A DNA stretch of 17,035 nt from a virus (IMGVR_UViG_2671180417_000010:1-17035), one strand, 5' to 3'. Positions 13,870 to 14,235 are shown, counted from the first letter of the stretch. Numbers and translations: made by a program. Notes: a model not told the origin generated them from the sequence alone.

Positions 13870-13910
13870 TATTGCCCCCCCTTTCGTTTCTTAAAGAGTC
13901 ATCAGGTGTC

Positions 13911-13930
13911 TTATTGTGTCGTATTGTTCC
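13911..13930 (-). promoter_or_regulatory. Two 10-bp-phased GAACAA-type units (plus strand TTGTGTC / TTGTTCC) about 45-60 bp upstream of alpA
   Basis: Read directly. Inverted orientation relative to the arrays at 7651..7680 and 15535..15554. Confidence 0.35.
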
Positions 13931-14142
13931 CGCTAGAGTGATGAATGGCAAATATTGAGGATGTATGATTTACAGAAAATGAAACAGTAAGAATAAAATC
14001 TTTTAAATTCATGTTAATACAAAGGCATAAAATATTGTTTCATGCCTTTTTTCTCGCTCTTTAAAGAGTGATTCGCTAGTGTATAAAAAACCAGTGACAC
14101 ATTAAAAATCAGCCACTTATAAATCTGTATGCTTTTTCGCCT

Positions 14143-14188
14143 CTTGTTCGTGGTTGTTCCACATTGTTGCTCATTGTTGCACGTTGTA
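14143..14188 (-). promoter_or_regulatory. Array of 4-5 10-bp-phased GAACAA-type units (plus strand TTGTTCG TTGTTCC TTGTTGC TTGTTGC TTGT) in the int-alpA intergenic region
   Basis: Read directly. Its reverse complement shares 19 identical bp (GTGGAACAACCACGAACAA) with the array at 7661..7679. Confidence 0.5.
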
Positions 14189-14235
14189 TCTGTTCGCATA
14201 TACAGTATGCGCATACTGAAAAAACACGAAAAAAA

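Follow-up and report, generated by a model that had tools for sequence, protein, structure and literature searches.

The int-alpA spacer of a capsid-forming phage satellite as a candidate alpA control region with phased repeat arrays and a terminator-like hairpin

This study examined the spacer between int and alpA in a capsid-forming PICI (phage satellite), and the reading favored here is that the spacer acts as the alpA control region in the style of Apl, Cox and Vis, with arrays for AlpA placed both at att and in the gene's own control region and with a terminator that would insulate alpA from int. A probability of about 0.5 is given to this model. The anatomy, conservation and non-randomness of the region were computed, helper induction and autoactivation are taken from papers on related islands, and the pairing of proteins with sites as well as the transcription start are predictions.

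Results and Discussion

The satellite and its genomic setting

The window, which is the whole stretch of 17,035 nucleotides analysed here (IMGVR_UViG_2671180417_000010:1-17035), contains a capsid-forming PICI of the EcCIEDL933 type inserted in a lambdoid prophage. Annotated E. coli elements match it at 97% DNA identity over 83% of the window length, and the capsid-module genes of the window were assigned through this identity. Because the annotated relatives encode an HK97-type major capsid protein, prohead protease, portal, head-tail connectors, HNH endonuclease and the small and large terminase, a set of genes characteristic of the capsid-forming PICIs of which EcCIEDL933 is the type example, the element was assigned to that type. 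As in EcCICFT073, EcCIMP1 and EcCIEDL933, elements of the same type, int is followed by alpA in the same orientation, here at one end of the element; the order on the minus strand is int (14236..15465), the 366-bp spacer, alpA (13681..13869), a C4-RNA/Icd-like zone, a DUF927 primase gene and the HK97-type head module. The int product is a P4-type tyrosine integrase of 409 aa with the arm-binding domain PF13356 and PF00589 (PHROG integrase, E 1e-71), and alpA encodes an AlpA-family winged-helix regulator of 62 aa (PF05930, E 5e-17; PHROG 'excisionase and transcriptional regulator'). The nearest solved structure to AlpA is PDB 8C3T, an AlpA family protein (E 2e-6), for which a literature search gave no relevant paper. 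The element also has its own replication gene (DUF927 / PHROG DNA primase, E 2e-171). For EcCIEDL933, induction by the helper phage requires alpA, and helper dependence of induction and transfer is known only for EcCIEDL933 itself (bioRxiv 10.1101/2022.09.08.507074).

This copy of the satellite interrupts a DUF968 gene of the prophage nin region (window positions 1..78 and 15639..17035 are the flanks), is co-oriented with that gene and lies upstream of rusA and the Q antiterminator gene. Early transcription of the prophage would have to cross or excise the 15.6-kb satellite before reaching Q. Published helper-embedded PICIs are reported in late genes, and close relatives of the present satellite occupy chromosomal sites at tqsA, between phoQ and roxA, and near smrA/abgR. 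Two RNA families were recognized in the window: a C4 antisense RNA (Rfam, 69 bits) with a1/b1 target sites lies beside the Icd-like gene (12374..12461 and 12529..12578, minus strand), forming a P1/P4-type immunity RNA module within a capsid-forming PICI, and a sok antitoxin RNA (114 bits) with hokD (16319..16493, minus strand) belongs to the flanking prophage and not to the satellite.

Conservation across the spacer

A total of 67 spacer copies, 50 of them distinct and 68-100% identical to one another, were collected from IMG/VR contigs, E. coli genomes and Shigella, aligned in alpA orientation and weighted by 13 clades defined at 96% identity. A search of the genome contigs with Int returned one locus only, and the int-alpA interval carries no RefSeq annotation in the relatives. 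The GC content of the spacer is 0.32-0.39, compared with about 0.5 in the flanks, and the flanking genes are recognized by Pfam as a P4-type integrase and AlpA, which agrees with the preliminary description of the region as an AT-rich int-alpA intergenic region. Every feature in the motif list of that description is present where the list had placed it.

Comparison of the 13 clades revealed conserved islands standing out within an otherwise diverging spacer. The invariant runs are ATAATTTTTTT, TGATTTT, ATTTTA (within the hairpin discussed below), TCTGTAAA, TTTGCCA and ACTCTTT. The first of these (14239..14229) covers the int stop codon and the start of a T-rich tract (14216..14239, minus strand; segment identity 0.94) and is invariant among the 13 clade representatives. 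TGATTTT lies together with ACTGGTTTTTTATACACTAGCGAAT in a conserved block (14073..14112, minus strand) that forms part of the segment 14112..14060, and this segment has the highest identity in the spacer interior (0.87). Combined with reporter studies on related PICIs (PMC6092414, PMC11773190), these conserved islands indicate that the earlier proposal of a densely regulated alpA control region was right in outline.

Searches for known element classes gave little. With the Rfam covariance models, nothing in 13600..14400 reached the gathering score and the sole permissive hit was at chance level (E 1.9); the spacer had no match when queried against the phage database, and inspection of the spacer by eye for lambda CII, IHF, CRP and alternative-sigma motifs gave no convincing match.

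Phased AACAA arrays in the spacer, at the att arms and before the capsid operon

The distal array of the spacer (14144..14187, minus strand) consists of five AACAA cores at an exact 10-bp pitch and is proposed to hold operators for AlpA or, alternatively, for Int. The pattern ACAA-N6-ACAA-N6-ACAA has seven matches in the window where 0.01 would be expected. The arrays described previously at 13911..13930 and 14143..14188 are both real. The cores of the spacer array are 0.90 identical across clades versus 0.64 for the positions between cores, and the peak of conservation falls exactly at the ACAA phase. The number of copies in the distal array varies by whole 10-bp units through whole-unit indels, with five copies in 33 of the 50 variants, six in 10, three in 6 and two in 1.

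What the preliminary description had missed is that the GAACAA units of the spacer belong to a set of four arrays across the element, including two at the att arms, which changes the most likely identity of the units. The att core AATGCTG, placed by the junctions with uninterrupted host sequence, is found at 69..75 and 15639..15645. The int-side arm (15490..15555, plus strand) carries two copies of GTGACTACACC (15490..15512) and then an ACAA array (15522..15555), and the far arm (152..217, plus strand) carries two copies of (A/G)TGACTACACC (152..174) and then an ACAA array (194..217); the GTGACTACACC tandem doublets lie about 90 and about 140 bp from the core. The fourth ACAA array (7657..7680, plus strand) is situated between the terminator of the PerC gene and the capsid operon and is conserved in two relatives, L002 and L077. 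It is nearly identical to the spacer array, with GTGGAACAACCACGAACAA common to both, and its orientation relative to the downstream genes is the opposite of that of the spacer array. The same four array positions recur in the relatives at the three chromosomal sites named above.

This arrangement resembles that of several characterized regulators. Operators of recombination directionality factors (RDFs) consist of 6-bp direct repeats at 10-11 bp spacing and occur at att as well as at a distant promoter. For 186 Apl, pR-pL carries seven such direct-repeat operators and attP carries five, all bound cooperatively, and P2 Cox and P4 Vis behave like 186 Apl (PMC7498355); RdfS is a further example. 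As with 186 Apl, P2 Cox and P4 Vis, a small helix-turn-helix protein is encoded near int in the present element, and three or more short direct repeats about one helical turn apart are found at att and at a distant promoter (PMC7498355). Specifically, the arrays contain at least three adjacent direct repeats at helical-turn spacing, and the same repeat type occurs at att (194..217, 15522..15555) and away from it (14144..14187, 7657..7680). The present element differs in that its arrays lie on both att arms and at the structural operon; AlpA (PF05930) is not a homologue of Apl or Cox, and its binding to these units is putative. Additionally, Apl and Cox act as repressors of face-to-face promoters, in contrast to the activation reported for PICI AlpA.

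The doublets next to the arm arrays have a separate parallel. In helper-embedded PICIs (HE-PICIs), an attP 'doubled motif' (tgTGTATTGCa x2) has been described, with a layout proposed for an Int tetramer (PMC10111431). The doublets of the present element share with that motif a tandem arrangement of 12-bp period, present once per arm, co-oriented and at fixed distances from the core; these distances are about 81 and 132 bp in HE-PICIs versus about 90 and 140 bp here. They differ from it in sequence, which is GTGACTACACC, and in belonging to another integrase clade, and the ACAA array that follows each doublet here goes unmentioned for the HE-PICI motif in the portion of PMC10111431 that is available. 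Since the four GTGACTACACC copies fit the Int-tetramer layout, the ACAA arrays are left for an accessory protein. By analogy and from sequence, the ACAA arrays are probably AlpA operators and the GTGACTACACC doublets would be the Int sites.

The most serious competing explanation, although unlikely in our judgment, is that the AACAA arrays are arm-type sites for the N-terminal domain of Int, in which case Int bound between int and alpA would couple recombination to regulation. Int does have an arm-binding domain, and the arrays flank the att core on both arms, beside the doublets. A satellite with another AlpA allele (L082, NZ_CP069522.1; Int 75% and AlpA 68% identical) also speaks for this explanation, as it keeps the doublets and the ACAA arrays on both att arms but has a different array in its spacer. 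There, a phased (G/A)AATATC array (17665..17689) immediately follows the int stop, in the place equivalent to that of the ACAA array of the window spacer, and only a degenerate CGAAC series is found nearer alpA. In sequence terms, the arm arrays of this satellite appear to track the Int clade at least as well as AlpA. Against binding by Int, the four GTGACTACACC copies already give each Int protomer an arm site of its own, in line with the proposal for HE-PICIs (PMC10111431). Moreover, five to six consecutive units with a 10-bp pitch are what RDF-type regulators typically have (PMC7498355), unlike arm sites. Furthermore, one array is located upstream of the capsid genes, where binding of Int has no known reason.

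A likely promoter for alpA overlapped by the proximal array

A consensus scan identified a candidate alpA promoter (13923..13951, minus strand) composed of the -35 hexamer TTGCCA (13946..13951), a 17-bp spacer and the -10 hexamer AACAAT (13923..13928). When one consensus rule was applied to all 50 variants, TTGCCA-17-[A/C]ACAAT was found in every one of them, with its spacing kept across a 10-bp indel, and an alternative sense promoter, TTAACA-16-TATYCT, was found in only 34. The -10 hexamer matches four of the six consensus positions. Judged by these sequence features, TTGCCA-17-[A/C]ACAAT is likely the alpA promoter, of a weak sigma-70 type, with a predicted transcription start near 13916 and a leader that would be about 47 nt long.

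The proximal array (13905..13930, minus strand) reads GGAACAATAC / GACACAATAA / GACACC at 10-bp pitch and lies over the -10 hexamer and the predicted start. One ACAA unit forms part of the -10 hexamer itself, and two to three further units come after it at 10-bp pitch; in the other spacer clade, there are four proximal units. About 20 bp upstream of the -35 hexamer lies TCTGTAAA (13969..13976, minus strand), one of the runs that are invariant among the 13 clades, which as a guess could be a candidate site for an activator or for the response to the helper. On the opposite strand, TCTGTAAA reads TTTACA, a -35-like hexamer, and an antisense TTTACA-19-TAAAAT is present in 34 of the 50 variants.

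In EcCICFT073 and EcCIMP1, the regions upstream of alpA are helper-induced, autoactivated by AlpA and not SOS-dependent, and the EcCIMP1 reporter region from -449 to +50 does not respond to DNA damage alone (PMC6092414, PMC11773190). No mapped cis-elements were found in the whole-region reporter studies of EcCICFT073, EcCIMP1 and EcCIEDL933.

A terminator-like hairpin selected in the sense transcript

Between the distal array and the promoter lies a hairpin (14016..14052, minus strand) that comprises an A-run (14047..14052), a 9-bp stem GGCATGAAA/TTTTATGCC (14038..14046 with 14024..14032), a 5-nt loop (14033..14037) and a T-rich tail (14016..14023). The hairpin with T6 noted earlier at 14024..14052 is therefore real and larger than was described, having the 9-bp stem and a z-score of -4.4 for the minus-strand RNA. 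The predicted folding energy is -12.9 kcal/mol for that strand and -9.3 kcal/mol (z -2.9) for the plus strand. The stem is kept in all 49 scorable variants. Where stem positions depart from Watson-Crick pairing, they are G.T in alpA orientation in 11 of the 15 stem types and A.C in 1 of 15, and stem position 4 follows an A-T, G.T, G-C path across the clades; because wobble and compensatory changes favor the minus-strand RNA, selection was concluded to act on the hairpin in the sense RNA. The A-run that precedes the stem, which is the T6 of the plus strand, is kept in 49/49 variants, and the sense tail has at least five T in eight positions in 33/49 and is weak in the other 16. A consensus terminator scan flagged the hairpin on neither strand. 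The simplest reading of these sequence features is that the hairpin looks like a bidirectional intrinsic terminator. The spacers of two other alpA alleles likewise have a terminator-like hairpin before alpA.

The preliminary description had interpreted the hairpin as a possible plus-strand terminator of antisense transcription entering from the left. Termination on the plus strand is plausible given the kept T6, but the wobbles show selection on the sense RNA, and antisense transcription entering from the left is unlikely in view of a strong plus-strand terminator at about 13506..13535, to the left of alpA. That intrinsic terminator (13506..13535, plus strand; GCGGCTCC...GGGGCCGC followed by T7) ends a YnfO/YlcI-like gene converging on alpA.

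A related explanation, which is considered improbable, is that the hairpin and its T6 end a short plus-strand RNA that starts from TTTACA-19-TAAAAT and regulates read-through from int or the alpA transcripts. The plus-strand T-run in 49/49 variants, the invariance of TTTACA and the full promoter-like site in 34 of the 50 variants are consistent with such an RNA. However, wobbles favor the sense RNA in 11 stem types versus 1, the plus-strand stem is weaker and contains an A.C mismatch, the 19-bp spacer is poor for a promoter, and the RNA would be only about 45 nt long, with no Rfam family match.

Two ACTCTTTAA boxes and the alpA leader

The repeated motif TTAAAGAGT at 13891..13899 and 14061..14069, which reads ACTCTTTAA on the gene strand, was borne out as a non-random feature: the window contains three exact copies of ACTCTTTAA, all on the minus strand, compared with 0.08 expected, and three copies were reached in 0 of 200 shuffles. 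The third exact copy (13353..13361) is followed at a distance of about 25 nt by an in-frame ATG (13326), itself preceded by AAGGG, in a 263-aa ORF (12832..13623, minus strand); this ORF has no family match and is intact here, and in relatives it is annotated as a truncated pseudogene.

Box 1, AATCACTCTTTAAA, contains the distal TTAAAGAGT (14059..14072, minus strand) and is present with at most one mismatch in 58 of the 67 loci. A palindromic operator around it, CTCTTTAAAGAG, was rejected, as its right half is not conserved and only the sense-strand half is. Box 2, ATGACTCTTTAAGA (13889..13902, minus strand), is present in 67/67 loci a few nucleotides upstream of the alpA RBS, is BoxA-like and complementary to the SD, and contains the ACTCTTT that is invariant across the 13 clades. 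A resemblance of TTAAAG.. to the P2 cox box was set aside, as the copies here are 170 bp apart and not in tandem. The RBS AAAGGGGGGG and the GTG start codon of alpA occupy 13867..13883 (minus strand), and the G-run of the RBS (13875..13881) has between 4 and 7 G in relatives that otherwise hardly differ, a homopolymer-length polymorphism that could tune translation.

Read as ACTCTTTAAGA, box 2 agrees with the BoxA consensus of gamma-proteobacteria, GYTCTTTAANA, in 10 of 11 positions, with C4 present and an A in place of G1; the full match, G1 included, is not found in box 2. The BoxA of suhB lies 6 nt from the SD, represses translation and promotes Rho termination via Nus factors (PMC5725501). 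Box 2 is like it in being an 11-nt, U-rich box a few nucleotides upstream of the SD with the critical C4 (PMC5725501), and unlike it in having A for G1, in lacking enrichment and in not being general across alpA alleles. Box 2 could be considered a BoxA-like RNA element or an anti-SD that leaves alpA untranslated and prone to Rho, with relief from this state as the helper-sensing step. Such a role is held to be doubtful, at much the same level as the antisense RNA discussed above. Beyond the near-consensus match and the position next to the SD, it is favored by the invariance of ACTCTTT, by the location of all three ACTCTTTAA copies on the sense strand, and by the pairing of CUCUUU with the SD in the predicted folds of 8 of 10 leader variants. 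It is disfavored by the A at position 1, where all validated BoxA tabulated in PMC5725501 have G, and by the count of BoxA near-matches in the window, which at 2 versus 1.9 expected shows no enrichment. The SD-sequestering leader hairpin, although it appears in predicted folds, reaches z-scores of only -1.2 to -1.6 and was rejected as a candidate. Two other alpA alleles have no such box near the SD, and the resemblance to BoxA was found after several motifs had been tested.

A stronger version of this idea is very doubtful: that the BoxA-like box and the terminator together make alpA depend on the host Nus/Rho machinery, so that lambdoid helpers with N-type antiterminators would switch alpA on, either in trans or, in the nin-embedded copy, by antiterminated read-through from the prophage. 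If true, this would answer the long-standing question of how Gram-negative PICIs sense their helpers. An argument for antitermination from homology with the P. aeruginosa AlpA was discarded, as that protein is larger and has a different fold: it is an antiterminator of more than 140 aa with a 21Q-like fold that forms a ring in the RNA exit channel (PMC9371919), and it has nothing in common with the 62-aa PF05930 protein beyond its name and the general theme of positive regulation near terminators. The Pas sRNA, described in a preprint, was also set aside, as it concerns lambdoid prophages.

Features judged not functional

The region just downstream of int contains a CGCATA hairpin and an overlapping LexA-like CTGT-N8-ACAG (14188..14212 together), both judged not functional; the segment has an identity of 0.73, among the least conserved in the spacer. 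The hairpin (14196..14212), proposed earlier as part of a densely regulated int 3' end, is present as sequence, but a regulatory role did not hold up: its predicted fold is no more stable than those of shuffled controls (z -0.4 and -1.1), and it is lost in the divergent clades, which are unrelated there. The LexA-like box (14188..14207, TACTGTATATGCGAACAGAT) owes its existence to one G-to-T difference, which the window allele shares with a single other variant, L016.

Direct SOS control of alpA through this box is highly improbable: although CTGT-N8-ACAG is present in the window, nearly all relatives have CTGG, the divergent clades are unrelated at this position, and the alpA reporters of related PICIs are unresponsive to SOS without helper phage (PMC6092414, PMC11773190). 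The chance that the spacer instead encodes a small protein is negligible, since the ATG-initiated 66-aa ORF that exists there (14014..14214, minus strand) has no Pfam or PHROG match, is unannotated in the RefSeq relatives and is intact in only 7 of the 50 variants.

A model for alpA control

In the favored model, AlpA would bind the phased units as operators and would have two roles, acting as an excision factor at att and regulating both its own promoter and the capsid operon. The terminator would stop int transcripts before alpA in the sense direction and, in the opposite direction, would stop transcription heading into int. Together with the weak promoter, it may hold alpA silent until a signal from the helper phage raises transcription, after which AlpA bound at the arrays would reinforce its own expression. 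Several observations run counter to this model, among them the replaced spacer array of L082, the failure of the terminator scan to flag the hairpin, its weak sense tail in 16 of 49 variants and the match of the -10 hexamer at only four of six positions. In addition, the proximal units overlap the -10 hexamer and the predicted start, which is the usual position of a repressor, yet AlpA is reported to activate; and some 230-270 bp separate the distal array from the predicted start downstream of it, a long distance for a simple activator.

Conclusions

In the papers cited here, the switching of alpA by the helper in Gram-negative PICIs is known only from whole-region reporters. This study provides a parts list at the level of coordinates, including operator-like arrays of a type that recurs at att and before the capsid operon, a putative terminator that would insulate alpA, a likely promoter found in all variants and two invariant boxes. 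The list concerns a known switch assembled from familiar types of part, and does not describe a new kind of system. If the model is correct, a single repeat type may allow one small protein to connect excision, self-activation and expression of the capsid genes.
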